DNA of 64,000 nucleotides from Anaerolineales bacterium (GTDB lineage: Bacteria > Chloroflexota > Anaerolineae > Anaerolineales > E44-bin32): assembly GCA_035471625.1 (NCBI GenBank), contig DATIPT010000037.1:9559-73558 (forward strand). The letters are read 5' to 3'. Below the pieces are notes generated by a model that saw only the letters and a program-made list of their open reading frames with translations, ran no database searches and was not told the DNA's origin. Each line of letters starts with the position of its first letter. Within the stretch, counting starts at the first letter, position 1. Below, one piece after another: positions 2,740 to 55,590 of this stretch. The translations under genes were made by a program, and so were the position numbers.

Positions 2740-3753
2740 CTACTCTTGCGGCAGGGACGGCAACGGAAGCAGGAACGGGTTGTCGTTCGGGACAAGCATC
2801 ACCTGGATTCCCGGGCCGAGCTTCTGGACGTAGGTGTACGTGATCAGGTCTGGACTGGTTCGCAGCGCGGCGGCGATCAATTCGAGGGCCTTGGCCTCGG
2901 CATCGGCCTCGATCAGGCGTGCCTCGGCCCGACCTTCGGCGGCGATCACGGCGGCGTCCGCCTGGCCCTGGGCCGTCTGGCGAGCCTGCTCGGCCTCCTG
3001 GCGGCGCTGCTCGACGACGAGGCGCGCCTGCTGTGCCTGCTGCTCGGCGATTTGCTTCTGTTCGACGGAGGCGGCATACTCAGGCGAGAAAGTGATGTTT
3101 CGCAGGACGAAGTCGACCAAGACCAAGCCGTTGTCGGCCAGCTTGTCGGAGAGCTCGAGCAGGATTCGATCCTTGAACGCGTCCCGCTCGGAGGTCACGA
3201 TCTGCTCCACGGCGTACTGGGAAGCGGCATCGCGGATGATGCCCCGCGCCTGGGGCCGAACCACCTCCGTGGAGTATCGACTCTTCCACTGGATGTGAAC
3301 GTCGATGACCTCGTCTGGATCGATGGAAAAGATCACGGAGCCGTCGATGAAGACCTCCTGGCCGTCGGACGTCCGGGCCGTCACCTCGAGGTCATCCGAG
3401 GGGCCGCTCCCCTCGGCGATCGTCATGGTGTAGATCTGCCGCGAAATCGGATAGATGACCACGTTCTCGAAGAAGGGAACGATCCATCGCAGGCCGGGTT
3501 GGAGCACATCCTCCCGGTACCCCTTCGGCGCCAGGGCCGAAATAACCACCCCCCGCTCCTCCGGCTGGACGAAGACCAGGCCGGCGCTGACCACGGTCAG
3601 CAGCGTCGCCAGAACGATCATCCCCAAGACGAGCGCGGCGGCCGACTTGACCGGACGACCGCGCCCCACGCGTAGCACGACCAAGGCGATCACCGCAAGG
3701 CTTCCAAGCCAGGCGAAAGTTGCCAGGGCTCGCATGATCTCAGCAACGTTCAT
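2740..3753 (-). CDS. SPFH/band-7 (prohibitin/HflK-C-like) membrane protein
   Basis: N-terminal TM helix, an SPFH core, and a coiled-coil tail rich in AEQQAQQARL/EAEQARQ. The SD AGGAGGG lies upstream of the ATG, and a TATAAT -10 sits on the minus strand at about 3795-3800. Confidence 0.8.
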   Translation of the reverse strand: MNVAEIMRALATFAWLGSLAVIALVVLRVGRGRPVKSAAALVLGMIVLATLLTVVSAGLVFVQPEERGVVISALAPKGYREDVLQPGLRWIVPFFENVVIYPISRQIYTMTIAEGSGPSDDLEVTARTSDGQEVFIDGSVIFSIDPDEVIDVHIQWKSRYSTEVVRPQARGIIRDAASQYAVEQIVTSERDAFKDRILLELSDKLADNGLVLVDFVLRNITFSPEYAASVEQKQIAEQQAQQARLVVEQRRQEAEQARQTAQGQADAAVIAAEGRAEARLIEADAEAKALELIAAALRTSPDLITYTYVQKLGPGIQVMLVPNDNPFLLPLPSLPQE

Positions 3754-3871
3754 AGCACCCTCCTGTCAGAGTTGAGATCCGTTTCGACCGTAGCATTATA
3801 CCGAGCCGGGGCTTCCGTCCCCGACGACAGGCTGACGGGAGGCCGCTTCCCGTCGGACTCCGCGCGAGGGG

Positions 3872-5998
3872 TCAGTCGCAGAAGAGGTCGAAGACGGTGT
3901 CGTACATCGAGTCGGACAACGCGTAGCCTGGGGGCCTATCGACCAACAACGCCTGGCATGCCCGTCGTCGGTTGACAGAGACGGCGTTGATCTTGGATGC
4001 GACGGCCTCGAGTTCCGATCGCATTTCAAGGAACGCATACGCTCTGGCGAAAGGAATCCACTCCACCCCCACAAGGGGCTTGAGCCCCCTTTCGGACGCC
4101 TCTTGGGCAAGGCCGGGGACCCTCTCGAATTCCCCTCGCTGCAAGGCGAGTTCGGCCTTCTGGAAGAAGTAGCACCAGCCGTGATCGGGCTCCGGGCCGA
4201 AGAGCCACTCCGGGACTGAAGCGCCCGAGGCGTCGGCGTGGATCTGGTCAATACGCGAATGTGGTGCTGCGATCTGAATCACCAGAGGATCATCCGGAAC
4301 GAGAAGCGGCGCCTGTCCGTCAAGGATCCGGACGCAGGCTCCCGGCAGCGTTTGGGCCGCCACGACAAGCTTGCCGAAGTCGGTGGGGACAGAGTGCGTC
4401 CGGTAGGCGCCTCGGCCGTGGTCCTCGCCGGATGTGATCTCATCCAACGACGTATCAGGATACGCAACCGCCGAATAGGAATAGGGAACGGGAACCTCTC
4501 GCGGGATCCCGACCGCGTAGATCAGATTGGCGGGGCCCCAGACGATACTGACGTCATCCGCATAGGAGAAGGACGGGTACTTGACGAAGAATGTCGTACC
4601 AGGCTGAAAGCCCGGCGCCCTCCAAGCCACCTGCCGCCAGAACTGCGCAGTCTCCTCCTGCTCGACCAGGGCCCAAGTCGCGATGGCGCGGTGAGTCAGC
4701 GTCGCCGCCGCCAGGAGTCCCGCCAAGATCAAGAGAGAGACGACTCTCGACCGCAGGAGCTGCAGACTCGCCACGAGCACAACTGACGCGGCGAGGGAGC
4801 CTGGCAGCGCGTAGTGCGAATAGGCGCTGAACGTGATCACGCGGTTGGCAACGACGACGGGCACCGCGGCGGCAAGCGCACCCAAGGCACCGATCACGAG
4901 CGCCTCCATCCACACTGTGCCATCCCGGAGATCGGCCGACGCTTCCCGGGCGGCAGGCTGCACGGATCGCCGGATGCTCCAGAGACGATGCAGCCCGATG
5001 GCCCCCACGACGGCTAGCGCGGCGAGGAAAGCCTTCCCGAGGTCCGCCAGGCGCAAGCCATAGAGTTCCTCACTCAGGGGAACCCCCCAGGCGAAGATGA
5101 CCAGGTTCGTCCAGCTCCGGATCAGGTTGACGCCCCAGCGCAAGGTCGTGAGCACAGGCTCCTGGAGCAACACCCCCAGCTGGACCGCGACGTCTGTTTC
5201 GGATCGTCCACCTTCAAAGACAAGAAGCCGCCACGCCAGAAAGCCGAGCGGGATCAGGGCTGCGGGCAGCCAGGCCTTGAGAGAGGTGGTGAACCTGGAA
5301 CGAGCCTTCTCTTGGACTTCCAACCCTCCTACCACAACAAAGACGCACAGGAACCGGAAGAGCTCAATCCCGATGGCGTACTCGACGAGGGCCAGATACG
5401 TCCATCCGGTAGCGATCGACGCGACCCAGTAGAGGGCCTGGGCGCGAGGCGTCCGTGCCCGGACCGCAGCCAACGTCAGTCCAATCGACAACACCTGCAG
5501 GAACAGGCTGAGCATCATCGGCAGGTACTCGATGCCTGCGACCCACCACAGGTATCCAGGGTACAGGGCGAAGAGCAGCGCTCCCCATAGCGGTGCGCTT
5601 CTCTTGCCGGGCCACAGCTGGGAGAAGACCCAGTAGGCCGCGAAGGCTGAGCCTAGTCGAAGTCCGAAGGAAATCAGGTGATAAGGGAGCGGATTCGGGC
5701 CGAAAGCGGAGAAGAGCGCGGAGAACAGTATTCCCCTCGCCGGTCTGTCAATGCTGAACATCTCCAGGAAGACGGACGGACCGGCAGAAATCCCGTCTAG
5801 CATGTAGTACCAGTCGTCTCTGTAGTACGTCAGAACAGTGGCGGCAGGTAGGAAGACGAAGGCTACGGTAGCTGCGAGGAACAGCAGGCCGGGAAGATCC
5901 TTCGATCGGCGCAGAGAGGCAACGATCCCATGGGATCCCACGTATTGGGCAGGCCTTCTACGCGGACCTTGCGTCGTCGTCATTGAGTTGGCGCCCAC
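3872..5998 (-). CDS. Large polytopic membrane protein, possible GT-C-type glycosyltransferase with a C-terminal soluble domain
   Basis: More than 10 hydrophobic segments over the first ~470 aa and a YYRDDWYY loop near the N-terminus. The start is uncertain: the track start overlaps dtd by 41 nt, and GTG 5941 is an alternative. Function is inferred from topology only. Confidence 0.4.
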
Positions 5999-22990: not shown

Positions 22991-25069
22991 TCACTCCTCG
23001 TCCTCTTCCTTGCCGGCGTCCTTCTTGCGGGCAGCGATGATCCCTTCCGCTACATGCGCCGGGACGACCTCGTAGTTGGAGAACGACATCGTGAAGACGC
23101 CCCGCCCGCCCGTTACCGAACGGAGCTCGCTCGTGTAGCGCAGCATCTCGGCATGCGGCACCTTCGCCGTAACGATGCTCCGGCCGCGCTCGGTCTCCAT
23201 CCCCTGAACCCGCGCCCGCCGCGTGTTCAGGTCGCCGAGGACATCGCCCATGTGCTCTTCGGGGACCGTCACCCGGACGTCCATGATCGGCTCGAGCAGG
23301 ACCGGGCCGGCGTCGCGAAAGGCCGCCTTGAAGGCCTCCCGTCCGGCGGTCTCAAAAGCGACCGCCTTGGAGTCGACCGGGTGCTCCTTGCCATCGGTGA
23401 CCGCCACCCTCACGTTCTCGACCGGGTAGCCGGCGATGACGCCGCCCTTGAGGACGCCGCGTACGCCTTTTTCGATGGCCGGCATGAAGCTGTTGGAGAT
23501 CGCGCCGCCGAAGACCTCGTTCACGAACTCGAAGTCCTCTTCGGGGTTCGGCTCGATCCGCATGTGGACTTCGGCGAACTGCCCGGCGCCGCCGGTCTGC
23601 TTCTTGTGGCGGTGGGCGGCCTCACCGCTTCGGGTGATGGTTTCCCGATACGAGACGCGCGGCGTCTCGGTCTGCAACCCGACCTGGAACTTGTTCTCGG
23701 CCTTGCGGATGGCGACATCGATATGCTGATCGCCCATCCCCTGGAGGATCGTCTGGTTGGTGCTGGCCTCCTGGTGCCAGGAGAGGGTTGGGTCTTCTTC
23801 GCACAGGCGCGTCAGCGAGGCCCCCATCTTGGTCGAGTCGGCCTGGGTCTTGGGGAGCACGGCCACGGCGTACAAGGCGTTCGGGTACTCGGGCACGGGG
23901 ACGAGGATCCGCTGCGCCTTATCGCCCAGCGTGTCTCCGGTCCCGGCGGCCGCCAGCTTGGCCACGGTTCCGATGTCGCCCGCATGCAGCTTCTGGACCG
24001 GAATCTGTTCCTTGCCGCGCATCACATGCAAGTTGCCGAGCCGCTCTTCGGCTCCCTTGGTGTGGTTCCACAAGCGGCTATCCGAGGCGAGGCTCCCAGA
24101 AAAGACGCGCAGGTAGGTCAGCTTCCCCACGAAGGGGTCGGCCGTCGTCTTCCAAACGTACACGGCCAACGGTCCGGCGTCGGACCCGGTAAGTTCCACT
24201 TCCCCCGAGGGTCCCTCGCCACGGACCGGGGGCGCCTCGCCCGGTGACGGAAACCATTCGATGATGGAGTCCAGCAGCGGTAGCGCACCGATCCCGGCGG
24301 TCCCGGCGGCGACGAAGACCGGCACCACACGGCCCGACCGGACGGCCTGACGAAAGCCCTTGGCGATCTCTTCGGCCGAGAGCTCCTCCCCGCCAAGGTA
24401 CTTCTCGAGCAGGGAGTCATCGCCCTCGGCGGCCGCTTCGACCACGACGATCCGGGCGTCTTCGGCCTCCGAGCGCAGGTCCTCCGGGACCTCGCCAATC
24501 TCCTTGCCGTCGCCGAGGCGGACCTTCATCGTCAGCAGGTCGAGGGCGCCCTTGAAGCCGGCCTTCTCGCCCACCGGGAGCTGGACCGGAACGAATGCCG
24601 TCTCGCTGGAAAGGCTGCGGACGGACTCCAAGGCCCTGGCGAAGCTGGCGTTGTCGCGATCCATCTTGCTGATGACGACGAAGCGAGGCAAAGAGAGCTG
24701 GTCGCAGTACCCCCAGACCACCTCCGTCCCAACTTCGACCCCGGAGACGGCGTCGATCAAGACGACCGCGCCTTCCACGACACGCAGGGCGGAGATCACC
24801 TCGCCGACAAAGTCGGTGTAGCCGGGCGTGTCGAGCAGGTTGATCTTGGTGTCGGTGTGCTCGAGCGGGACGACAGCGGTAGAGAGGGAGAGCTTGCGGC
24901 GGACTTCCTCTTCCTCGAAGTCGGAGGCGGTGTTTCCCTCCTCGACCTTTCCCATGCGGGTCGTCACTCCGGTGGCAAAGAGCGCAGCCTCGACCAGCGA
25001 TGTCTTGCCCGCGCCGCCATGCGAAACCAGCGCGACATTCCGGAGATGATCGGTCGCGTATTCCTTCAT
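22991..25069 (-). CDS. fusA: Elongation factor G family GTPase (stand-alone paralogue, not in an rps/str context)
   Basis: G1 SHGGAGKTS, G3 DTPGYTDF, and EF-G domains II-V (e.g. GDTLGD, HPVDSK). Confidence 0.88.
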   Translation of the reverse strand: MKEYATDHLRNVALVSHGGAGKTSLVEAALFATGVTTRMGKVEEGNTASDFEEEEVRRKLSLSTAVVPLEHTDTKINLLDTPGYTDFVGEVISALRVVEGAVVLIDAVSGVEVGTEVVWGYCDQLSLPRFVVISKMDRDNASFARALESVRSLSSETAFVPVQLPVGEKAGFKGALDLLTMKVRLGDGKEIGEVPEDLRSEAEDARIVVVEAAAEGDDSLLEKYLGGEELSAEEIAKGFRQAVRSGRVVPVFVAAGTAGIGALPLLDSIIEWFPSPGEAPPVRGEGPSGEVELTGSDAGPLAVYVWKTTADPFVGKLTYLRVFSGSLASDSRLWNHTKGAEERLGNLHVMRGKEQIPVQKLHAGDIGTVAKLAAAGTGDTLGDKAQRILVPVPEYPNALYAVAVLPKTQADSTKMGASLTRLCEEDPTLSWHQEASTNQTILQGMGDQHIDVAIRKAENKFQVGLQTETPRVSYRETITRSGEAAHRHKKQTGGAGQFAEVHMRIEPNPEEDFEFVNEVFGGAISNSFMPAIEKGVRGVLKGGVIAGYPVENVRVAVTDGKEHPVDSKAVAFETAGREAFKAAFRDAGPVLLEPIMDVRVTVPEEHMGDVLGDLNTRRARVQGMETERGRSIVTAKVPHAEMLRYTSELRSVTGGRGVFTMSFSNYEVVPAHVAEGIIAARKKDAGKEEDEE

Positions 25070-25185
25070 CGGTTGATGAGCCTCCCGCGGGGTGTCGTGG
25101 GTCGAATTCTAAGGGATGAGAGGAGGGCTGTCAAAGGATTCGGTTCGCGACGAGCGACCCTCACGCGCCGAGGCAACCTCGTGAA

Positions 25186-25194
25186 TGATAGAAT
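25186..25194 (+). promoter_or_regulatory. Extended -10 promoter (TGaTAGAAT) giving a near-leaderless transcript
   Basis: TGATAGAAT ends 9 nt before ATG 25204, and there is no SD in between. Confidence 0.55.
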
Positions 25195-25203
25195 CGTCAT
25201 GCC

Positions 25204-25689
25204 ATGGCGTCCGTGGTCAACCAGTACTCCTTCCTCCTCGCCGGCATTGGCGCGCTGGCTCTGCTGGCGGCCATCCTGTTCCGCGATGGCATCAAGTCCG
25301 GCGACTTCCTGGCCCTGGGCGCCCTGACCCTCGGTCTGGCGCTTGCCTATGGCCTGCTCCGCCCCGGCCAGGGGACGGCCGATACGACCGACGCCGTCCG
25401 GGCCGAAATCGGCAAGGGCACCCCAGTCCTGCTTGAATTCCAGAGCCCCTTCTGACTCGGCTGCATGGCGGTCAGACCCGTCGTGGACGGAGTCGAGCTT
25501 GAGTACGAGGGCAAGATGAAGGTCATCCGACTCAACGTCCAACATCCCGCCACGCGCCCGCTGGCGGAGGCCTACCGATTCCAGTACACGCCGACGTTTG
25601 TCCTGCTCGGCCCCGACGGGACCGAGCTATGGCGCTCGGTCGGCGCGCTCGATCCCGAGGCCGTTCGAGACAGCCTGGGGTCCCCTTGA
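25204..25689 (+). CDS. Membrane-anchored thioredoxin-fold selenoprotein (U-x-x-C), in-frame TGA at 25453-25455 read as selenocysteine
   Basis: Track ORFs 25204..25455 and 25465..25689 are in the same frame. The joined product has 2 TM helices, then PVLLEFQSPF-U-LGC-MAVRPVVDGVELEYEGKMKVIRLNVQ...YTPTFVLLGPDG. That is a thioredoxin layout with the TGA at the first redox Cys. Confidence 0.75.
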
Positions 25690-28382: not shown

Positions 28383-28649
28383 CTAGATCTGCTCGAAATG
28401 GGCGACCGGGAGCACGAAGACCGTCACCCGGCTATGATCCTCTGCATCCGACTCGGCGAGCGAGGCCCGCAGGGTATCCAGCGCTTCGTCGACGCGATCA
28501 TCCGCCAGCCCGATCATCAGGGTCGTGTTCCCGCGGCGCAGGAAACCGCCGGTCGTCGCCAATCGGGTAACCCCGATCTTCCGCTCGACGAGCATCGGCA
28601 ACGCCTTCTCGGCATCGTCATCGTGCATCACCGCCAGGATCATCTTCAA
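28383..28649 (-). CDS. DarA/YaaQ-like (DUF970, cyclic-di-AMP receptor family) PII-like protein
   Basis: ILAVMHDDDAEKALPMLVERKIGVTRLATTGGFLRRGNTTLMIGL matches the YaaQ core (..ATKLASTGGFL..GNTT..IG). A TTG 28649 start overlaps the antiporter stop, and ATG 28643 is an alternative. Confidence 0.75.
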   Translation of the reverse strand: MKMILAVMHDDDAEKALPMLVERKIGVTRLATTGGFLRRGNTTLMIGLADDRVDEALDTLRASLAESDAEDHSRVTVFVLPVAHFEQI

Positions 28650-30553
28650 GGGATCAGCTCCTCATAGCGTTCGACATCGAACGCGAAGACCGTCGCTCCA
28701 CCGACCCGCACTTGCGATGACGCCCCATTCGGTCCGAAGGGTGCCGGGCTGAATTCGAAGCGCTCGCGACAAACGCTTCGGAGTGATTCGACTGCGGCCG
28801 ACAGCTTCCCGTCCGGCACACCGAGTAGAAGGACGTGATTCGGGCGGCGCAGGAAGCCCCCCGTGCTCCGCATGTGCGTGGCCGTGATGCCGCGCGCCGC
28901 CAGCGCGCTCGTGGCCGATTCGAGATCTCGGGCCTGGACGACAGCCGCCACCAGATGGCGCACCGGAACGACCTCTCGCCGCTCCCAGATCATGGACGAC
29001 CACATGGCTGCGCCGGCCTCGAGGGCCACGTCGACCTCGGCCACAAGTTCCTCATAGGTCTCATCCGAGATCACGCCATCCCGAACGAGATTGGCCAGAC
29101 TCGAGCGCTGCGCCCGCAGTCCCTCGCGACGTGCCGTCTCGAGTTCTTCGGCCTCCACGTCGGGCGCATCTTCAATGACGTCCTTCACGGCGCCCGTCAG
29201 GGCTTCAATGCGACGCCCAAGGATCCTTCGGATGCGCTCCCAACTGTGAGACGAGACCAGGCCGTCATCATGCAGACCTTCGAGGTGCTTGTAGCTCGCC
29301 CGGACCGCCAGGGCGCGGGCATGCCGGCGCTCATACTCGATCTCATCCTCGGTTCGCTCGATGAGCTTCAGACGCCGAACGAGCCATTCCATCGAAAGAC
29401 CCTGGCCGACGAGCGTGAACAGCACGACACCGAAGGTCATGACCAGCACCACTTGCCGGTCGGCCCCAAAGGTGCCGGGCAGGCTCAACGCCAACGCCAG
29501 GGCGATCGCGCCGCGCAACCCGCCCCAGAACATCACATGGCGCCAGCGTTCAGGGATCGCCCGCCCGAGGCGCGAGAGCCCATAGATCCCGACCGCCCGG
29601 CTGATCAGGACCCCGCCGATGGCCCACAGGATCAGGCCCCAGTTGCCGATCAGGCCCGGGATATCGATCTCGAGTCCGATCATCAGGAAGACGATCGAGT
29701 TCGCCAGGAAGGCGACATACTCCCAGAAGTTGAGGACCACGATCCGGGTCGTCGGCGACATTTCGCGTGACGCCAGGTTGCCGTTCACCAATCCGGCGCC
29801 GACAACGGCCAACACGCCGCTGACGTGTAGTTGCTCGGCGACCAGATAGGTCCCGAACGCCAGCACGGTCGTCAGCGTCGTCTCGACCAGGTAGTCGTCG
29901 ATCGCACCGATTAGCCGGGAGACGACCCACCCCAGCGCCAGCCCGACGATCACACCTCCGCCGGCCACGATGATGAAATCGAATAGGCCGTCGATCAAGC
30001 TCACTTCCCCGGTCAGTAGGGCCACCAGGGCCAGCTGGAAAAGAACGATCGCCGTCCCGTCGTTGAACAGGCTCTCCCCTTCCAGCATGACCTCGAGGCG
30101 CTTGGGGGCGCCGAGCCGGCGGAAGATCGCCACAACCGAGACCGGGTCGGTCGCGGCGATGAGCGCCCCGAACACCAGCGCGCTTCCCAGCGCCAGGCCG
30201 CCGCCGTAGTGGACGACCCCCCCGACGATCAACATCGTCAGGATGACGCCGGGTACCGCCAGGACAAAGATCGTCCACAGATTCTTGCGCAGCTTGTCGA
30301 GGTTGAGATGGAACGCCGCCTCGAAGACCAGCGGAGGAATCAGCAGGAAGAGAATCAGTTCGGACGTCAGGTTCATCCGGATCGGGGATCGGAACGATAG
30401 CGCCACGCCGGCCAGGACGAGCGCCACCGTGTAGGGGATCCGGAAGCGGCGGACCGCCAGGGCGACGACCGAAACGATCAGGAGCAGCTCCAGGATCAGG
30501 GTCTCGGTCTGCAGGAGTTCGGTCATGAGGGTCGGCCAGCGCTCAGCGCGCAA
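28646..30553 (-). CDS. CPA1 (NhaP-type) Na+/H+ antiporter fused to a C-terminal DarA/YaaQ-like domain
   Basis: About 12 TM segments with ATDPV and FNDG motifs, a cytoplasmic helical linker, then ..LVAAVVQARDLESATSALAARGITATHMRSTGGFLRRPNHVLLLGV.. This is paralogous to the adjacent standalone DarA-like protein. The start is TTG 30553 or ATG 30526. Confidence 0.8.
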   Translation of the reverse strand: MRAERWPTLMTELLQTETLILELLLIVSVVALAVRRFRIPYTVALVLAGVALSFRSPIRMNLTSELILFLLIPPLVFEAAFHLNLDKLRKNLWTIFVLAVPGVILTMLIVGGVVHYGGGLALGSALVFGALIAATDPVSVVAIFRRLGAPKRLEVMLEGESLFNDGTAIVLFQLALVALLTGEVSLIDGLFDFIIVAGGGVIVGLALGWVVSRLIGAIDDYLVETTLTTVLAFGTYLVAEQLHVSGVLAVVGAGLVNGNLASREMSPTTRIVVLNFWEYVAFLANSIVFLMIGLEIDIPGLIGNWGLILWAIGGVLISRAVGIYGLSRLGRAIPERWRHVMFWGGLRGAIALALALSLPGTFGADRQVVLVMTFGVVLFTLVGQGLSMEWLVRRLKLIERTEDEIEYERRHARALAVRASYKHLEGLHDDGLVSSHSWERIRRILGRRIEALTGAVKDVIEDAPDVEAEELETARREGLRAQRSSLANLVRDGVISDETYEELVAEVDVALEAGAAMWSSMIWERREVVPVRHLVAAVVQARDLESATSALAARGITATHMRSTGGFLRRPNHVLLLGVPDGKLSAAVESLRSVCRERFEFSPAPFGPNGASSQVRVGGATVFAFDVERYEELIP

Positions 30554-31829
30554 ACCACGGGTAGGCCACCGCCATCGCCAGGCTGGCGATCGCCAGGGTG
30601 ACGATCATCACCGGGAGGCCGCGTCGATTCCAGAGCGGCGACTTGATCGGCTCCTGGGTGCGGCGGGAGGCTTCGACAACGACGACGTTCGCCGTCGATC
30701 CGATGATCGTCCCGTTCCCTCCGAAGCCGGCGCCGAACGCGAGGGCCCACCACAGCGGGTTCACGCTGGCTCCGGCCAGACCCAGTCTCTGGATCACGGG
30801 AATCATGGCCACGGTCACCGGGACGTTGTCCACCAGGGCGGAGAGGATCGCCACAAACCACATCAATCCGATGGCCGCCAGGATCGGCTGCCCTCCCGCC
30901 AACCCGGCTACGGTTTCGCCCACCAGGTCCAGAACGCCGGCCGCCTCGAGGCCCCCGACCATGACGAACAGACCGCCAAAGAAGACCAGGACGGACCACT
31001 CGACGGATTCAAGCGTTTCCGTGATCGACGGCCGGACCCACAGCAGAGCGAGACCGGCTGCGGAAAGGGCGATCAAGGATGAGCTCGCTTGGAGGATGTC
31101 CTGCAGGAAGAAGAGCATCACAGCCAGTCCCAAGACGGCCAAGACCTTGACGGCGGTCCTCCGGTCCCGCAAGGCTTCCTGCGGGTCCAGTCGCTCGAGC
31201 ACGGTCGGATCCTTCGGTCGATTGGCCAGTTCGCGCCGGAAGAGCCAGAGGAGCAGGCCCAACGCCGCCGCCCACGCCACGATCACCACCGGGAGTGCGT
31301 GAGTCAGGAAGTCGTTGAAGGTCAAACCGGCGGCCGAGCCAATCAGTATGTTGGGTGGATCGCCGATCAAGGTCGCCACCCCTCCGGTGTCCGAGAGGAG
31401 GGCGATGGCGATCAAGAACGGGATGGGGGAAATACCGAGGATCTCGCTGATCAAGATCATCAGGGGTGCGACCAACACTACGGTGGTCACGTTGTCGAGG
31501 AACATCGAGACCACCGTCGTCACCAGACCCAGGAAGACCAGCAACAGGACGGGATTGCCCTTGGAGCGCCAGGCCGCCATTGTCGCCACGTACTCGAAGA
31601 ACCCGGTGGGCTTGAGCAAGGCGACCAGCAGCATCATCCCCAAGAGAAGCCCGAGTGTCTCAAAATCGAGGGATTCGATCGCCAGGTCCTCGTTGTAGAA
31701 ACCGAGAACCTTCCCGGCTATGACCATCGCCGCCGCGCCAGCGAAGCCCACGATCGCTCGGTCGAGCCTTTCGCTGAGGATCAGGCCGATGGCGACCACG
31801 AAGACAACCGACGAGACGATCAATGCCAC
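30543..31829 (-). CDS. ArsB/NhaD-superfamily (CitMHS/YbiR-like) ion permease
   Basis: About 11 TM segments with the internal-repeat architecture of ArsB/NhaD permeases. The GTG start overlaps the CBS gene stop (TAGTG). Confidence 0.7.
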   Translation of the reverse strand: MALIVSSVVFVVAIGLILSERLDRAIVGFAGAAAMVIAGKVLGFYNEDLAIESLDFETLGLLLGMMLLVALLKPTGFFEYVATMAAWRSKGNPVLLLVFLGLVTTVVSMFLDNVTTVVLVAPLMILISEILGISPIPFLIAIALLSDTGGVATLIGDPPNILIGSAAGLTFNDFLTHALPVVIVAWAAALGLLLWLFRRELANRPKDPTVLERLDPQEALRDRRTAVKVLAVLGLAVMLFFLQDILQASSSLIALSAAGLALLWVRPSITETLESVEWSVLVFFGGLFVMVGGLEAAGVLDLVGETVAGLAGGQPILAAIGLMWFVAILSALVDNVPVTVAMIPVIQRLGLAGASVNPLWWALAFGAGFGGNGTIIGSTANVVVVEASRRTQEPIKSPLWNRRGLPVMIVTLAIASLAMAVAYPWFAR

Positions 31830-32305
31830 TAGGACGCCCCGCTCTGCGGCTCACTCGCCGACTTCAGGAAGCCCACGCCGACATCGACCCACGAGGCCAG
31901 CCCCACCAGACGCCCTTCCCCGTTGACGACGGGGAGGTCGTGCAAGTTGTGCTGCCGCATGAAGGCGTGGGCCCGTAGCAGGCCGGAGCCGACCTCGACG
32001 GCGAGCGGCTCCGCCATGATGTCTCGCACCGGCGCGGCACGGACTTCCTCCGGGATCTTCCCCATTTCCAACCGGCCAAAGTCCTGGACGAAGTCGTAGT
32101 CCTCGACCATGGCGACAAACGCCGGGAGGACCAGCTCCAGTAGATCGCGCAGGCGGACGATGCCGATCAAGACCCCCTCGGCATTCACGACCGGCAGTAT
32201 CCCGATCCGATTCCCAATGAGCAGATCGATCGCTTCCTGGAGACGACCCTGATGGCCGATCGAGACTACTTCCCGCTTCATGACTGACTCGATGAGCATG
32301 GTCAC
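31829..32305 (-). CDS. Stand-alone CBS-pair protein (DarB/CbpB-like architecture)
   Basis: 158 aa containing two CBS motifs (..VVSIGHQGRLQEAIDLLIGNRIGILPVVN.. and ..PLAVEVGSGLLRAHAFMRQHNLHDLPVVN..). It is the first gene of the transport operon. Confidence 0.75.
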   Translation of the reverse strand: MTMLIESVMKREVVSIGHQGRLQEAIDLLIGNRIGILPVVNAEGVLIGIVRLRDLLELVLPAFVAMVEDYDFVQDFGRLEMGKIPEEVRAAPVRDIMAEPLAVEVGSGLLRAHAFMRQHNLHDLPVVNGEGRLVGLASWVDVGVGFLKSASEPQSGAS

Positions 32306-32389: not shown

Positions 32390-34807
32390 CTATCCTGTTG
32401 AAACCTTCGACTCGCTCTCATGGCCCGAACCCTCGACCGTCTCCACGAGCATCGGCTCGGCCCCGCGGACACGCGCTGTGACACCCGACGGGAAGGTCAC
32501 CAGGCACGCCGCTGGCTCACGCTCAACTTCCAGACCACGCCAGCGCAAGTTCACCTTTTCTCCAAGATGCGATTCGCCGGCGACCTCCAGGGAGGTTGGA
32601 GACCGCAGGCTCACGCCCAGGACGTCGAGGAATCCGGAGAGCGGCGGGAGGCCAGCGGCGTGGTGGCGCGGGCCCAGGCCTGTGCGCCGCGCCGCATCAT
32701 ACGAGTGCCGAATCGCCTGAGCCTCTCGGAGACCCGCGACGATAGTCGTCATCAGCCGGTCGAGCACATCAGCCGCCTCCCGGCGGTACCCGTAGCGCAC
32801 GAGCGCCTCGATCATCAGCGTATTCAGCATTACCGAGATCACGTCGGACCGGGGGTCCGGCGAGCCGTTCGACCCCGGCTCGTGGAGCGGACTCAGGCGC
32901 AACCCCCCCGGAGCGAGGTAGCGATCGGAACGCATCATCGTCTCCACGATCCGTCTCGCCTGCTCCGGCTCGACCATGCCCGCCCACAACGGCAACAGGA
33001 GGGTGAGATCCTCTTGATCGAGATCGAGTGTCGCGAGGGTCCATGCGGCATCCGGAGGGATCCCGCGTACTTCGACCGTCTCGACTGCGGCGAAGACCAG
33101 ATCGGTCGTAGCCGAGCCCTCGTTCAGGAATCGGCGGAAGCGACGGGCGTTGAGCGTCTCCACCCGGATCCTTCCCGATTCCAGCCGACCGCGGATCCGC
33201 ACCCGCGCTTGTTCGATGTCGCCGGAAGCGGCTTGGATGTGGACCGACAAGCGGCTCGCCTCGCGCAGCCGCCCGCTACCCTTTTCGTTGCCCGGACCCG
33301 TTCCCTGGGCGGCGACCTCGTATGCGCTGGTGCGGTGAGTCTCGCGTTCGATCCGGACAAAGCTCCCTCGCTCTTCGGACCAGGCCCGTGGCAGGAGCGC
33401 ACGCAGTTGACCGCGCCGGCGGACGAGTTCCTGGGCGATCTCGCCTCGACCGAGCCGCCGGGCGATCTCCTCAAGAGAGGCAGCTTCCCGGTACAGGAGC
33501 GCGAGCAGCGCCGGATCCTCGACGACCGTCGTGTCGATCCAGGGGGTCTCGCCGTCCGGGCTCCACCTCAATGGCCACGGGGGATGGGCGGCATGATCCC
33601 ACTCCGGCCATCCATCTCCGTCGCGGTCGTGCGGAGGCGAGAACCACACGCGGAAGAACGGCCACAGGGCGCGGAACCCTTCGGCGAGGAAAGCGTCGTC
33701 CTGCAAAACGTCATGAACCCGAAGCGTCAAGGTCGCAAGGATCGGCGGGCACAGGGTGCGGGCCCGTTGGCCAGCCGGACCCGGACGGGCATCGATCGCG
33801 CCATCGGCCGTCTGGGCGTTCCAGAAACCGCGCAAGACCTCTGCCCCCACATCCGGCGCCGCAGGCAGAAGCTGCCGGACGATGAAGTAGGCTTCCAGCG
33901 CCGAAGGCCCGACCCAGCTCTCGTCATAGTCGCGTCCATCCCCACTGACCGAGTAGCCGCGTTCGGGCGTCCTCTCCAAGACCAGGCTTCGCAGCGGCGT
34001 GAGGATCCCCGGGCCAACAAGGGCATTCAGGGCACTCTGCTGCGCAAAGTGGAAGGCCGAATCCCACTCGGGGTTCCCGCTTTGCACCTCGACCCAGCGC
34101 CCATGCAGCCGCTCCAACCGGGCGACCTCCGAGTCCCATGGCCTTGCGGCGGCTTCCTTCGCCTGGGCAAAGGACTCCTCTCCGCTTCGAAGGGCGGCTT
34201 CGGCCCAAGTGAAGGAGCGGTGGGCTCCCGGGGCCAGATCGGCGCGGACGATCAGGGCCGAGGTTGCCCCCGGATCTTCAATGGCGCCACCCGAAAGGAA
34301 GACCACCGGCTCGAGATCGGCGCTCCTCCCGGCCAGAGTCGTCACCCCGGAGAACGATCGGGGCAACATCCCTTGGCCTCCCGGAAGCGGGCGCAGTTGT
34401 CCGTGCAGCCCAAGACGGACCGGCCGGAAGTGATCCGTCGTGTTGACCAGGGTCAGGCGGCCAGAGAGGGTTTGTGAATCCTGCACCCTGACCTCTGCCA
34501 CGACGTCCAGCCCGGCCAATGGCGAGAAGCTAAGCCTCATGTAGGACGGAAGAATCGCCTCCAGGAGCGGCGGTCTGGCGAAGACCTGCGGGTCGGATGC
34601 GATCGGCCCGCCGATCCCGAAGCTGGGGAAGACTCGCAGACCGACGGCGCGCCGCCCGAAGGCGGTCTCCATCGCCAACGCCGGAGGTTCGCCGCCGCTG
34701 ACAAGTTCCCAGATGTGGTCGTCGGCGTAATCGGTCGGCCCGCGCAGGGCGTCGGCGGCGATGCGCAGGACAACGGGGCCGGCAAGGGGGATCGGCTCCA
34801 AGGACAC
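32390..34807 (-). CDS. Large cytoplasmic protein, possible (alpha/alpha)6-barrel glycoside-hydrolase-like enzyme
   Basis: The central region ..FFRVWFSPPHDRDGDGWPEW.. and the helical repeats resemble GH63/GDE-type barrels. I did not recognise catalytic residues. Confidence 0.3.
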   Translation of the reverse strand: MSLEPIPLAGPVVLRIAADALRGPTDYADDHIWELVSGGEPPALAMETAFGRRAVGLRVFPSFGIGGPIASDPQVFARPPLLEAILPSYMRLSFSPLAGLDVVAEVRVQDSQTLSGRLTLVNTTDHFRPVRLGLHGQLRPLPGGQGMLPRSFSGVTTLAGRSADLEPVVFLSGGAIEDPGATSALIVRADLAPGAHRSFTWAEAALRSGEESFAQAKEAAARPWDSEVARLERLHGRWVEVQSGNPEWDSAFHFAQQSALNALVGPGILTPLRSLVLERTPERGYSVSGDGRDYDESWVGPSALEAYFIVRQLLPAAPDVGAEVLRGFWNAQTADGAIDARPGPAGQRARTLCPPILATLTLRVHDVLQDDAFLAEGFRALWPFFRVWFSPPHDRDGDGWPEWDHAAHPPWPLRWSPDGETPWIDTTVVEDPALLALLYREAASLEEIARRLGRGEIAQELVRRRGQLRALLPRAWSEERGSFVRIERETHRTSAYEVAAQGTGPGNEKGSGRLREASRLSVHIQAASGDIEQARVRIRGRLESGRIRVETLNARRFRRFLNEGSATTDLVFAAVETVEVRGIPPDAAWTLATLDLDQEDLTLLLPLWAGMVEPEQARRIVETMMRSDRYLAPGGLRLSPLHEPGSNGSPDPRSDVISVMLNTLMIEALVRYGYRREAADVLDRLMTTIVAGLREAQAIRHSYDAARRTGLGPRHHAAGLPPLSGFLDVLGVSLRSPTSLEVAGESHLGEKVNLRWRGLEVEREPAACLVTFPSGVTARVRGAEPMLVETVEGSGHESESKVSTG

Positions 34808-34890
34808 GCTGCGATTCTACGGGGACTGGCGCGCCGGGCCAAGCGGCAGCCACTCCCTGCGGGCGGTGCGAAAGAAGGAGGTTTTGCCCG

Positions 34891-39295: not shown

Positions 39296-39624
39296 ATGAG
39301 ACCATCGACCGAGGGCCATCGCGCATTGGTCTTCGACCGGTTCGGAGGCGCAGCGCTGGCCGTTGCCTTGGGGCTGTTCCTCGCGGCGGCGATCCGACTT
39401 TCGCCGACGTCGTCTGGGACGCGCCCAACCGAGTGACGCTCACCGACGAAGACGGCGGTCGTTGGAAGTACAACTTCCTCCCGCGCAACCTTTGGCCCAT
39501 CGACGAGCAAAAGAGGAACGACGGTCGCATCCCCGTTCTCAGCATTCTGCCAGGAACCTTCGAACGCCATCGATATCCGCCTGGCCGACGAGGGGTCCCA
39601 ATCCGCAGTCCTACCTGCAGCTAG
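39296..39624 (+). pseudogene. Possible frameshifted remnant of a small membrane-anchored protein gene
   Basis: ATG 39296 opens a frame encoding a TM helix (GGAALAVALGLFLAAAIRL) that stops at 39434. The -1 frame then carries a protein-like stretch ADVVWDAPNRVTLTDEDGGRWKYNFLPRNLWPIDEQKRNDGRIPVLSILPGTFE with no upstream ATG. Confidence 0.3.
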
Positions 39625-41825
39625 AGTAGAGGAAGCTGGGGGTCCTCGCGTTCGGGCGGGTCGATCCCCAGGCGGTCTGAGAAGTTGTGGGGCCCGACCG
39701 AGGCATCTGCCGCCAGCCTGCGGATATGCCGGAACTTGACAATCTGCCCTCCGCCAGCCAGCCAATTGCGCAGGCGTGGATCGCGTCGCGCTCGTTCGGC
39801 GATGAGCGAAGCGCGACCGCCGGGGAGGACGACAACGTGGGGCTGAGCCAGCGGGCCGCCGAGGACCACCGCCAGGCTGGCCCTGTCCTGCACGCGGAAG
39901 TGGAAACCTGGACGCGGCGAGTCCTCCCAGGCGATCTCCTCTCCGGCGCGCACTTCGAAGCCCAGACGCACCCCAAGTTGCTGCAGGAGCTCGCGGATCT
40001 CCATCATGTCGGCCTCACGTCGCGCGGCCCGGTCTTCCTCCCGCAGGTCCCAACGTCCATCTTCATCTTCAACCCCGTAGGATTCCAGACAGGCGGTCAG
40101 CAACCGACGGTCGGGCGTCTGCAAGCCGCGCAGCGCGTTGCAGACGCCTACGTCCATGGCCTGGAACGTGATCCCCGGCTCGGAACGAAGCAATCCCAGG
40201 ACGAGCGATTCGACGCGGTCCGAAAGCGGTGAGGCCGCGTCGCCCGCTTCGGCAAGCCAGTACTGCCCGCTCTCCAACTCCAGTCGCGGTTCGAGTCGCT
40301 CGAGACGACCCCCGGAGACCAGCATCCGCTCCATTTCGTCGGTGAGCCGGGTCAGCGGCGGCGCATCGTCCGCAGCCCACAACTCCGCCAGGGTTTGGCG
40401 ACGAGCCAGTTCCAGGGAGGCGGAAGCGTGCAGGTAGCCGTAGCCCGCAGGCTCCCCCAGATCGCGTAGGGCGCGCTCGGCGGCTTCGGCCACCACCTTC
40501 GCCATCGGAGTCTCGTCCTTGGCTCGATGCCGGGAAGATTCCCACGTCAGAAACGCCTGTCCGTCGGCGAGGCGTACGGCATGCCCACGCAACCGGTATC
40601 CAGCGGCGTCCATCCCTGCCAGAGCTGCGGCCAGGAAGCCGTGCTCGGCCTCCGGGACGAACGCGGCCACGGTCGCGCCCTCCCCCTGCCGCCGGACGAG
40701 CGCGCCGAAAGCACCTCGGAGGGCCGCCGCATGCCAGGTCCAGTCGTAGCGTCGACGGCGCAAGACGATCCTGATGGGGTCTGCAGCGTCGCGACCCCAC
40801 AACCACGATGTCCACAGCGCGGAGAGCGTCCAGAAAGCCTGGTTCGGTCTTGGCAGAGCCGTCAGGATCCGGGGCGTCTGATCGGGCAAAGTGTCGTCCA
40901 GCTCCCGGATCGGCCCCGGGAAGATCGCCAGTACGCCGGGCCGGAGCGGCTCCGGACTCGGCCAGGGACGTGCTTCGACCCCCGGCGGTTCGAAGCGCCA
41001 TTCTTCAACCGCCCGCTCCAGCGCCCTCCAGACGTTCGTCTCCCGAAACCGCGGCGAGGCCACGAGTTGTTTCGGCCTGGCCCTCGTCTCCGGATGCCCC
41101 CAGAGCCCGTTGACCGCATCGAAGGTCGAGAGCAGCAGCGCCTGGGCCGCCTGCCGCTGGCGGCCCGAGAACTCGATCTGATCCATCTTCTGCAGTACCG
41201 TGATCAGCGCGTACAGGGCGCGCGACGGATAGACCTCCAGAGCCGCTTCGACATGTTCTCGATCGGGATCATCGCCAGGCGTGGCGCGCTCGGCGGCCAG
41301 GGCGCGCGCCAGGCCGCGCCCCGCGGTTTCAGCGGCCCTTTCCTTGTCGGCCGCCGTCGTTGGGTCCTCCCCGCTGTGCTGGCATGAACCGCACCCATAC
41401 GCTTTCAAGACCGGAACGTCCGTCTCTCGGTCCCAGACGAAGTAGTCGACGACGACCTCCGAACCGCAGGCCTCGCAGGTCGAGCGGTACAAGTCGAGCA
41501 AGAATGGTTCGAGGCGCCCGTCATCTTTGGCAGCCGAAGCCAGCTGGGCCAGGGCTGCGCGCAGATCGGACGCGTCGAGGGGATCAAGCCGCAACTCCAG
41601 GATGAAACGGGTCACCGGATTGCTGACGGCTACGATCGCGCCCCGTGCCCGGCCGGCCTCGATGGCCAACATCGGCGAAACCCCGAATGGATCGAGGAGC
41701 CACCCGTCTGGGTACGGGTAGCCCTGCAGGAACTGGTCGACGGAACCGCGCTCGACCGGCGGGAGGAAGCGGGCCAGCGGCCCTGGACGTGACGCCGGAA
41801 CGCCCGGCGGGTATGCGAGATCCAT
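39621..41825 (-). CDS. Large hypothetical protein, degenerate Zn-ribbon DNA-methylase-like (COG1743-type) N-terminus
   Basis: LLDPFGVSPMLAIEAGRARGAIVAVSNPV resembles the motif-I region of Zn-ribbon methylases, but the glycine-rich SAM loop is lost. It has a CxxC...CxxC ribbon (CEAC..CGSC). The ATG lies 7 nt downstream of a TATACT box. Confidence 0.35.
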   Translation of the reverse strand: MDLAYPPGVPASRPGPLARFLPPVERGSVDQFLQGYPYPDGWLLDPFGVSPMLAIEAGRARGAIVAVSNPVTRFILELRLDPLDASDLRAALAQLASAAKDDGRLEPFLLDLYRSTCEACGSEVVVDYFVWDRETDVPVLKAYGCGSCQHSGEDPTTAADKERAAETAGRGLARALAAERATPGDDPDREHVEAALEVYPSRALYALITVLQKMDQIEFSGRQRQAAQALLLSTFDAVNGLWGHPETRARPKQLVASPRFRETNVWRALERAVEEWRFEPPGVEARPWPSPEPLRPGVLAIFPGPIRELDDTLPDQTPRILTALPRPNQAFWTLSALWTSWLWGRDAADPIRIVLRRRRYDWTWHAAALRGAFGALVRRQGEGATVAAFVPEAEHGFLAAALAGMDAAGYRLRGHAVRLADGQAFLTWESSRHRAKDETPMAKVVAEAAERALRDLGEPAGYGYLHASASLELARRQTLAELWAADDAPPLTRLTDEMERMLVSGGRLERLEPRLELESGQYWLAEAGDAASPLSDRVESLVLGLLRSEPGITFQAMDVGVCNALRGLQTPDRRLLTACLESYGVEDEDGRWDLREEDRAARREADMMEIRELLQQLGVRLGFEVRAGEEIAWEDSPRPGFHFRVQDRASLAVVLGGPLAQPHVVVLPGGRASLIAERARRDPRLRNWLAGGGQIVKFRHIRRLAADASVGPHNFSDRLGIDPPEREDPQLPLL

Positions 41826-55379: not shown

Positions 55380-55477
55380 GCGGTTTCCTTTTGGCGTACG
55401 TCCCGCTCTCCCCGCCGGCAAGGGGCCTGGGCGAGCACCTTGACCCGCCCGCCGCAATCAGGATAGACTAGAGACAC

Positions 55478-55575
55478 CAACGCAAACGGGGAGCCCGGCG
55501 CGCCGGGCTGAGAGGAGGGGTTCGCGGCCCTCGACCCGAGGAACCTGATCCGGATAATGCCGGCGTAGGGATGGC
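55478..55575 (+). promoter_or_regulatory. TPP (THI-box) riboswitch aptamer
   Basis: GGGGAGC..CTGAGAGG..ACCCGAGGAACCTGATCCGGATAATGCCGGCGTAGGGA contains the conserved CUGAGA and ACCUGAUCCGGAUAAUGCCGGCG..GGGA cores. Confidence 0.9.
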
Positions 55576-55590
55576 ACCAAGCGGCATCCG

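Follow-up and report, generated by a model that had tools for sequence, protein, structure and literature searches.

Why would a cation/proton antiporter end in a domain of the DarA/PstA family, and why would its gene run directly into a second, free gene of that same family? Both features occur at positions 28383–32305 of a 64-kb stretch of DNA from an Anaerolineales bacterium (Chloroflexota), the window analyzed here. The initial annotation had described this locus as an ion-transport operon of four minus-strand genes, coding in order for a CBS-pair protein, a permease, the antiporter with its DarA-like tail, and an 88-aa DarA-like protein, and carrying three modules of the cyclic di-AMP (c-di-AMP) receptor type. 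The four open reading frames (ORFs) are present as described, and the last two, the fusion and the free DarA-type gene, are the subject of most of what follows. We lean slightly towards reading them as a tethered, probably hetero-oligomeric PII-like nucleotide sensor that would gate the antiporter, with c-di-AMP as its likeliest ligand.

The antiporter gene (28646–30526, minus strand) encodes a CPA1/NhaP-type cation/proton antiporter of 626 aa when read from the ATG at 30526, a start backed by both the public annotation and an alignment of 50 homologues; an alternative TTG upstream, at 30553, would extend the product to 635 aa (ORF 28646–30553). The protein matches Na_H_Exchanger (PF00999) in Pfam over residues 25–393 with 248 bits, scores 307.6 bits with the NCBIfam model TIGR00831 (a_cpa1; cutoff 279.6), and carries the CPA1 signatures ATDP (residue 125) and ND (residues 155–156). 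Its C-terminal tail (28646–28969, minus strand) is a DarA/PstA-type domain, hereafter the long form, which matches CdAMP_rec (PF06153) at residues 534–631 with 55.4 bits against the curated Pfam gathering cutoff of 27 bits. Searched with phmmer against the PDB, this domain found PstA/DarA across its whole length (E = 4e-10), and the window antiporter gave no Pfam match to PF02080 (RCK_C/TrkA_C). In the AlphaFold2 (AF2) model of the full-length protein, which has a predicted local distance difference test (pLDDT) score of 78, the transmembrane domain extends to residue ~385 and is followed by four long cytoplasmic helices (~393–517) and a PII-like domain (522–617) with the order beta-alpha-beta-beta-alpha-(hairpin)-beta, the additional hairpin lying at the position of the B-loop.

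The free gene (28383–28649, minus strand) overlaps the antiporter gene by 4 nt. Its TTG start sits inside the antiporter stop (ccTTGAagATG) and gives an 88-aa product beginning MKMILAV, which agrees with the N-terminus of the family. This short DarA-type protein matches PF06153 with 78.4 bits (profile positions 1–61), again above the cutoff of 27. BLASTP aligns it with the fused domain at 32% identity (E = 5e-15), bearing out the paralogy that the initial annotation had read directly from the two sequences, and each of the two can be aligned with PstA/DarA chains of solved structure. Modelled with AF2 (pLDDT 88.3; predicted template modelling score, pTM, 0.78), the small protein shows the complete beta-alpha-beta-beta-alpha-beta PII-like fold, with an 11-residue link replacing the B-loop. 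In a Foldseek search of the PDB with this model, the top 16 matches were all PstA, DarA or PEPE_1480, with canonical PII ranking behind. The exact 88-aa sequence is missing among the catalogue matches, where the best cluster is 92% identical, though the adjacent antiporter is represented by a 100% identical 626-aa entry, 'Na+/H+ antiporter [Anaerolineales bacterium]'; the public annotation of this contig may have used another start for the small gene or missed it.

What has become of the ligand pocket in these two sequences can be judged from the complex of Listeria monocytogenes PstA with c-di-AMP. There, the ligand contacts the main chain of G47 and the peptide bond between residues 26 and 27; T28 and N41 touch the ribose, and T97 and F99 come from the adjacent subunit (PMC4475381). 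The T-loop, 34-GGFL-37, reaches the phosphate with its amides and stacks F36 against the adenine, and the kink of the B-loop, 94-GGA-96, adds a further backbone contact; R26 is dispensable, the position being Gly in L. monocytogenes PstA (PMC4475381). The short, structured GGFL T-loop and the absence of both a Walker-like B-loop motif and a C-loop set PstA apart from ATP-binding PII (PMC4475381). We scored these positions, in Staphylococcus aureus PstA numbering, over 83 sequences in five classes, including 37 fused domains. T28, G34, G47 and F99 are invariant throughout, and F36 and N41 are kept in most, both window sequences included. The fused domain retains T28, GGFL, N41, G47, T97 and F99 together with the GGA kink, and the small protein retains the same set without the kink and with Gly at position 26. 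Set against a B-loop of ~30 residues with a GGA kink, the fused domain has ~22 residues and GGA, and the small protein has neither. Scores and pocket signature together uphold the placement of both sequences in the DarA-type family from which the inquiry had started.

How far beyond this genome does the arrangement extend? Both PF00999 and PF06153 are present in 119 of the 120 best-scoring protein clusters (90%-identity clusters), so that the database search proposed by the initial annotation did recover the same fusion, though not as a rarity. Relatives of the locus were sought in one genome per species; 149 were found, and the best 80 of these 149 loci were compared, with fusion classes assigned from tblastn and ORF lengths. 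At least 36 species-level genomes carry the fusion, all of them metagenome-assembled genomes (MAGs) labelled Anaerolineales, Anaerolineae or Chloroflexota. The NhaP-DarA fusion is a widespread conserved trait of one bacterial lineage. Moreover, at every one of the 36 fusion loci whose sequence runs on far enough downstream for a verdict, a PF06153 gene of ~87 aa follows, with its start at -3 to +4 nt relative to the antiporter stop, and this pairing holds down to ~50% antiporter identity. Two small genes in series (S1 and S2) are found at nine of the 36 (L022, L023, L025, L027, L032, L036, L038, L040 and L045), which form a clade whose antiporters are ~51–57% identical to that of the window.

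The upstream side of the locus follows a different pattern. A glycoside hydrolase gene lies immediately upstream of the antiporter in 31 of 37 loci, within a syntenic order that reads PBP, MaoC, glycoside hydrolase, NhaP-DarA, small DarA, AMMECR1/flavin reductase, metalloenzyme, methyltransferase and EF-G. The CBS-permease pair adjoins the fusion at four of the 36 loci, in the same orientation in L001, L002 (partial) and L024 and divergently in L015, with the order of CBS then permease retained in L001, L024 and L015. The pair is a lineage-specific insertion, a cassette of two genes that parts the antiporter from the glycoside hydrolase. Because it is present at so few loci, and because the glycoside hydrolase is usually the upstream neighbor, the conserved functional unit is one of two genes, the NhaP-DarA fusion and the translationally coupled small DarA gene, and the four-gene arrangement with which we began was rejected as the conserved unit.

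The pairing of long and short forms recurs outside the antiporter fusion. With the fused domain as query, an exhaustive phmmer search returned 963 representatives at E <= 1e-3, and ~40 of the top 150 are two-domain proteins of 206–260 aa. One such protein is encoded in L071, where a bare 537-aa NhaP adjoins, on the opposite strand, a gene (L071:5174–5857, minus strand) for a 227-aa tandem protein that matches PF06153 twice (152 bits), long then short. A search with this protein found 367 relatives, among them at least 119 clusters of ~225–232 aa (P0271–P0389); tandem proteins of this kind, if named at all, are called 'uncharacterized protein YaaQ'. By BLAST score, the fused domains are nearer the N-terminal half of the tandem proteins (35 of 37) and the free small proteins are nearer the C-terminal half (46 of 46), and by this measure of sequence likeness the long form, with a B-loop, and the short form, without one, are two distinct and old paralogue lineages. 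L088 has the two forms as separate neighbors, a long PF06153 gene (122 aa) and a short one (87 aa) (3595–4264, plus strand). The two forms thus occur in three arrangements, as NhaP fusion and free gene, as tandem polypeptide and as two genes, and the order is always long then short. Since the tandem proteins join long and short covalently and in fixed order, the two forms would be expected to act in one assembly, an argument of the Rosetta-stone type.

Some of these genes have neighbors that deserve mention in their own right. In L088, a gene for an MFS transporter follows 32 nt on (4296–5609), a further possible pairing of sensor and transporter. We also considered whether tandem DarA genes always accompany an antiporter, and rejected the idea: a bare NhaP lies next to the tandem gene in two of the five cases examined (L071 and L082). 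PF06153 genes also occur singly, as short or medium forms of 95–106 aa in unrelated contexts (L085–L087). In L087, from a Thermomicrobiales MAG, a singleton 104-aa gene named 'cyclic-di-AMP receptor' precedes one for a 376-aa protein with a faint CBS match (L087:4001–5542).

Other Anaerolineales NhaPs, 55–60% identical in the membrane domain, share the same helical linker, past which there is either nothing (~530 aa; L044 and L071) or a TrkA_C/RCK_C domain at residues ~526–592, occupying the slot of the DarA-type domain (L034:6001–7824, L047:6001–7815, L050:5191–7068 and L070:6001–7848). In KtrA/C, CpaA and KhtT, RCK_C is well established as the domain that binds c-di-AMP (PMC10636490). Judged from these domain assignments, the C-terminal position of the antiporter serves regulation and can accommodate nucleotide sensors of different fold. 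In a rough neighbor-joining tree of the membrane domains, the DarA-fused antiporters cluster apart from the TrkA_C clade, and their grouping in one clade agrees with one ancient fusion event that selection has maintained. A reading of the TrkA_C NhaPs as in-situ domain swaps at one locus was rejected, given their different genomic contexts and their separate clade.

Taken together, these observations suggest how the unit might work. On the cytoplasmic side of the antiporter, the long domain, held by its tether, would join with one or more free short subunits in a single PII-like oligomer. Where a clade has two small genes, the gene content suggests a 1:1:1 heterotrimer per protomer; in the clade with one, the trimer could consist of one tethered and two free subunits, or of two tethered subunits, from an antiporter dimer, and one free. 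A nucleotide, most likely c-di-AMP, would then enter the inter-subunit clefts lined by the GGFL T-loop, T28, N41, G47, T97 and F99. Nuclear magnetic resonance of PstA has shown that the T-loop becomes rigid and the B-loop ensemble biased once ligand is bound (PMC12435418), and by the same token binding here would rigidify the T-loops and shift the only B-loop of the assembly, that of the tethered subunit. Because only this subunit has a B-loop, the signal would run through it and the long helical linker, and the movement so relayed would change antiport activity. High c-di-AMP would be expected to activate export of K+ (or Na+) in exchange for H+, by analogy with Firmicutes CpaA and KhtTU. What the analysis shows directly is which domains are present, their fold, the conservation of the pocket residues, the strict pairing and fixed order of long and short forms, and the RCK_C/TrkA_C domain that homologous antiporters have in the same slot; the hetero-oligomer, the nature of its ligand, the sense in which it would regulate and the cation moved are inferred.

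Several points tell against this mechanism and have to be set beside it. CPA1 antiporters form dimers and PII-like proteins form trimers, a mismatch of symmetry, and a long-to-short ratio of 1:1 does not by itself close a trimer. The small protein lacks both the GGA kink and the B-loop, the part of PstA that adds a backbone contact with c-di-AMP; Arg26 is not conserved; and the S1 pocket, alone among the five classes, is degenerate (GGLL, T41, Y99) next to a canonical S2 and fused domain, which would suit a heterotrimer of only approximate symmetry in which fewer sites are functional. Against NF058593, the NCBIfam DarA equivalog model, the fused domain scores 63.3 and the small protein 79.3 bits where the cutoff is 140, and on the strength of such profile scores the window sequences are members of the PF06153 family, not demonstrable DarA orthologues. 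Three of the five tandem genes examined (L081, L083 and L084) have no antiporter nearby, and the conserved adjacency of fusion and small gene lies inside a broadly syntenic region, so that vertical inheritance accounts for part of their co-occurrence. No diadenylate cyclase (DAC) was found in a six-frame scan of the 64-kb window for the motifs G[TS]RH[RK] and DGA[VIL][IVL], nor by tblastn in the window and the 80 loci (~0.9 Mb) with the DAC domain of L. monocytogenes CdaA as probe; as the DNA covered was under 1 Mb, scattered across many genomes, this result is uninformative. Likewise, Rfam detected no c-di-AMP (ydaO-yuaA) riboswitch in the window and 32 loci (~440 kb), a thin sampling, and a literature search returned nothing relevant on c-di-AMP or DAC in Chloroflexi/Anaerolineae. 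DAC-domain proteins do occur in Chloroflexi. The assembly in its complete form, a hetero-oligomeric c-di-AMP sensor whose long subunit is tethered to the CPA1 antiporter and which is completed by one or two loop-less paralogues, is a tentative proposal to which we give somewhat less than an even chance. Much of the same evidence would suit an identical architecture that serves another ligand (ATP/ADP/AMP, cAMP or a metabolite), or a ligand-free oligomerization or regulatory domain, in which c-di-AMP plays no part: the scores below the DarA equivalog cutoff, the lost R26, the missing kink and B-loop of the small protein, the lack of a cyclase or c-di-AMP riboswitch in the DNA sampled, and the 2015 survey that had PstA as Firmicutes-only (PMC4475381), which makes a function in Chloroflexota an extrapolation. 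We consider this unlikely, if worth keeping in mind, since the PstA-specific GGFL T-loop is kept and the Walker-like B-loop motif and the C-loop are absent (cf. PMC4475381), PstA/DarA are the best matches in both sequence and fold with canonical PII behind, and some homologues from the Chloroflexota already bear the NCBI name 'cyclic-di-AMP receptor'.

A different division of labor is conceivable, in which the small protein acts in trans after the manner of GlnK on AmtB, docking as a soluble, signalling homotrimer on the antiporter or on other targets, and the fused domains form homo-oligomers of their own that link antiporter dimers, with no co-assembly of the two. Known DarA/PstA and PII proteins are homotrimers, a PII protein co-encoded with its transporter target is classical, as in GlnK-AmtB and SbtB-SbtA (PMC10636490), and short and medium DarA genes occur singly in the unrelated contexts of L085–L087. 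The long B-loop, however, is the presumed target-binding element of the DarA/PstA family (PMC12435418), and a small protein without it would be ill suited to docking on a target unaided. The tandem proteins, moreover, join long and short covalently in constant order, and fusion, S1 and S2 make three distinct paralogues, a natural 1:1:1 heterotrimer; we accordingly regard independent action in trans as rather improbable. Further still from the evidence is the integrated four-gene c-di-AMP operon of the initial annotation, in which a DarB-like CBS protein would control the permease alongside the fused and free DarA domains. The genes are co-directional and tightly packed, and the CBS pairs of DarB/CbpB, OpuCA and MgtE bind c-di-AMP (PMC10636490). 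Yet the CBS protein scores 26.8 bits with the CbpB/DarB equivalog model NF041630, for which the cutoff is 125, and no DarB/CbpB chain is among its 33 PDB matches (E <= 1e-3), the nearest solved relatives being the generic CBS proteins MJ1225, PH1780 and AcuB. By these matches it is a generic CBS pair, sharing the CBS fold with DarB and nothing more specific, which leaves the count of three c-di-AMP-receptor-type modules unsupported. As the CBS-permease pair accompanies the fusion at only four of 36 loci, once divergently, against 36 of 36 for the two-gene core, we think it very improbable that the four genes form one c-di-AMP circuit.

The CBS-pair protein (158 aa; PF00571, 73 bits) is encoded at 31829–32305 and the permease (428 aa) at 30543–31829, both on the minus strand, and the CBS gene co-travels with the permease, not with the antiporter. 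The permease is placed in the CitMHS/ArsB/NhaD superfamily by PF03600 (287 bits), with weaker matches to ArsB, DASS and NhaD, and falls below every NCBIfam equivalog cutoff (MamN 225 against 500 bits, ArsB 110 against 457, NhaD 47 against 577); it stands outside the conserved core. Next upstream, a gene for an MGH1-like (mannosylglycerate-hydrolase-like) or trehalase-like glycoside hydrolase (32390–34807, minus strand; 805 aa; PF22422, 49 bits, and a weak Trehalase match) is co-directional and ends 84 nt before the CBS gene. Should this enzyme degrade a compatible solute, it would suit an osmoregulatory theme, although with the synteny of the whole region the link may be historical only. Stops and starts had been said to overlap along the whole operon. 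This is so between the CBS gene and the permease gene (1 nt, TAGTG) as well as between antiporter and small gene; the permease and antiporter genes are separated by a 16-nt spacer when the supported ATG at 30526 is used. The sole promoter-like match on the minus strand, at 34842–34814, lies upstream of the glycoside hydrolase gene, no intrinsic-terminator-like site was found in the locus region, and the glycoside hydrolase gene may share a transcription unit with the CBS, permease, antiporter and small genes. In our reading, the CBS-permease pair and the glycoside hydrolase are neighbors, possibly co-transcribed, that stand outside the proposed mechanism. Elsewhere in the window, there is a thiamine pyrophosphate (TPP) riboswitch at 55477–55587 on the plus strand (Rfam RF00059, 64.6 bits; gathering score 54.3), and two long candidate ORFs, both on the minus strand, have no Pfam family at E <= 1e-3 (39621–41825, 734 aa; 25066–25545, 159 aa).

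The fusion itself is visible in public catalogues, labelled just 'Na+/H+ antiporter'. Our literature search found no paper on a DarA/PstA-CPA1 fusion, a loop-less partner, tandem long-short proteins or an alternation of DarA with RCK_C; the unfamiliarity of the fusion that the initial annotation had remarked on holds good, and the fusion, its constant loop-less partner, the tandem proteins and the alternation with RCK_C appear undescribed. DarA/PstA is a conserved c-di-AMP receptor of well-studied structure whose output went unexplained for a decade. The question 'What is the function of DarA?' was still listed as open in a 2023 review (PMC10636490), a preprint of July 2026 proposes GlnR in S. 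aureus as the first target protein for DarA/PstA (PMC13484208), and the conversion of ligand binding into output by the PII-like domain is still called elusive (PMC12435418). Against this background, a natural covalent fusion would amount to Rosetta-stone evidence for at least one class of DarA/PstA targets, one that fits the central part that c-di-AMP plays in K+ and osmotic homeostasis. With sensor and effector in one polypeptide, plus a small partner, the unit also offers a tractable system for the study of PII-like signal output, even though its hosts are uncultured. If the mechanism proposed here is true, the antiporter would give the DarA/PstA family its first direct transporter target, and the reach of the family would extend beyond Firmicutes. 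PII-like and RCK_C sensors would then be interchangeable plug-in modules on one antiporter scaffold, and the architecture would pose the problem of a trimer on a dimer, a mismatch that the short subunits may solve.

The individual elements of this scheme have precedents, since both the control of cation/proton antiporters by c-di-AMP through RCK_C and the control of transporters by PII-type proteins, as in GlnK-AmtB and SbtB-SbtA, are already known. Among the nearest systems are CpaA of S. aureus and Bacillus subtilis, a CPA2 antiporter, and KhtTU, which likewise combine a cation/proton antiporter with a cytoplasmic c-di-AMP-receptor module and for which K+ and osmotic homeostasis would be the shared role; in those systems, however, the module is RCK_C (TrkA_C) on a CPA2-type transporter, whereas here a PII-like sensor is joined to CPA1/NhaP. 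GlnK-AmtB and SbtB-SbtA resemble the present unit in that a sensor of the PII superfamily is genetically coupled to a transporter, and SbtB binds c-di-AMP too (PMC8654305). In these pairs, the sensor is a separate homotrimer and the trimeric transporter is plugged by the T-loops of the sensor; here, in contrast, one subunit is fused to a presumably dimeric antiporter, a second paralogue, without the loop, is always present, and the long loop is the B-loop. The NhaP2/CvrA-type CPA1 antiporters with a C-terminal TrkA_C belong to the same transporter family and carry their regulatory domain in the same position, and those of L034, L047, L050 and L070 match this type exactly, but their domain has the RCK_C fold instead of a PII-like one and needs no partner gene. 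For mixed assemblies of PII type, NifI1/NifI2 provide a precedent, as two co-encoded PII paralogues that form a hetero-oligomer, although these are canonical PII proteins that control nitrogenase and are unfused to their target. Finally, with DarA (YaaQ) of B. subtilis and PstA of S. aureus and L. monocytogenes the unit shares PF06153, the PII-like fold and the residues GGFL, T28, N41, G47, T97 and F99, to which the fused domain adds the GGA kink and the B-loop. The known members of that family are stand-alone homotrimers of ~109 aa, with reports from Firmicutes only; here, in the Chloroflexota, the family appears as a transporter-fused copy accompanied by an 88-aa form that lacks the B-loop.

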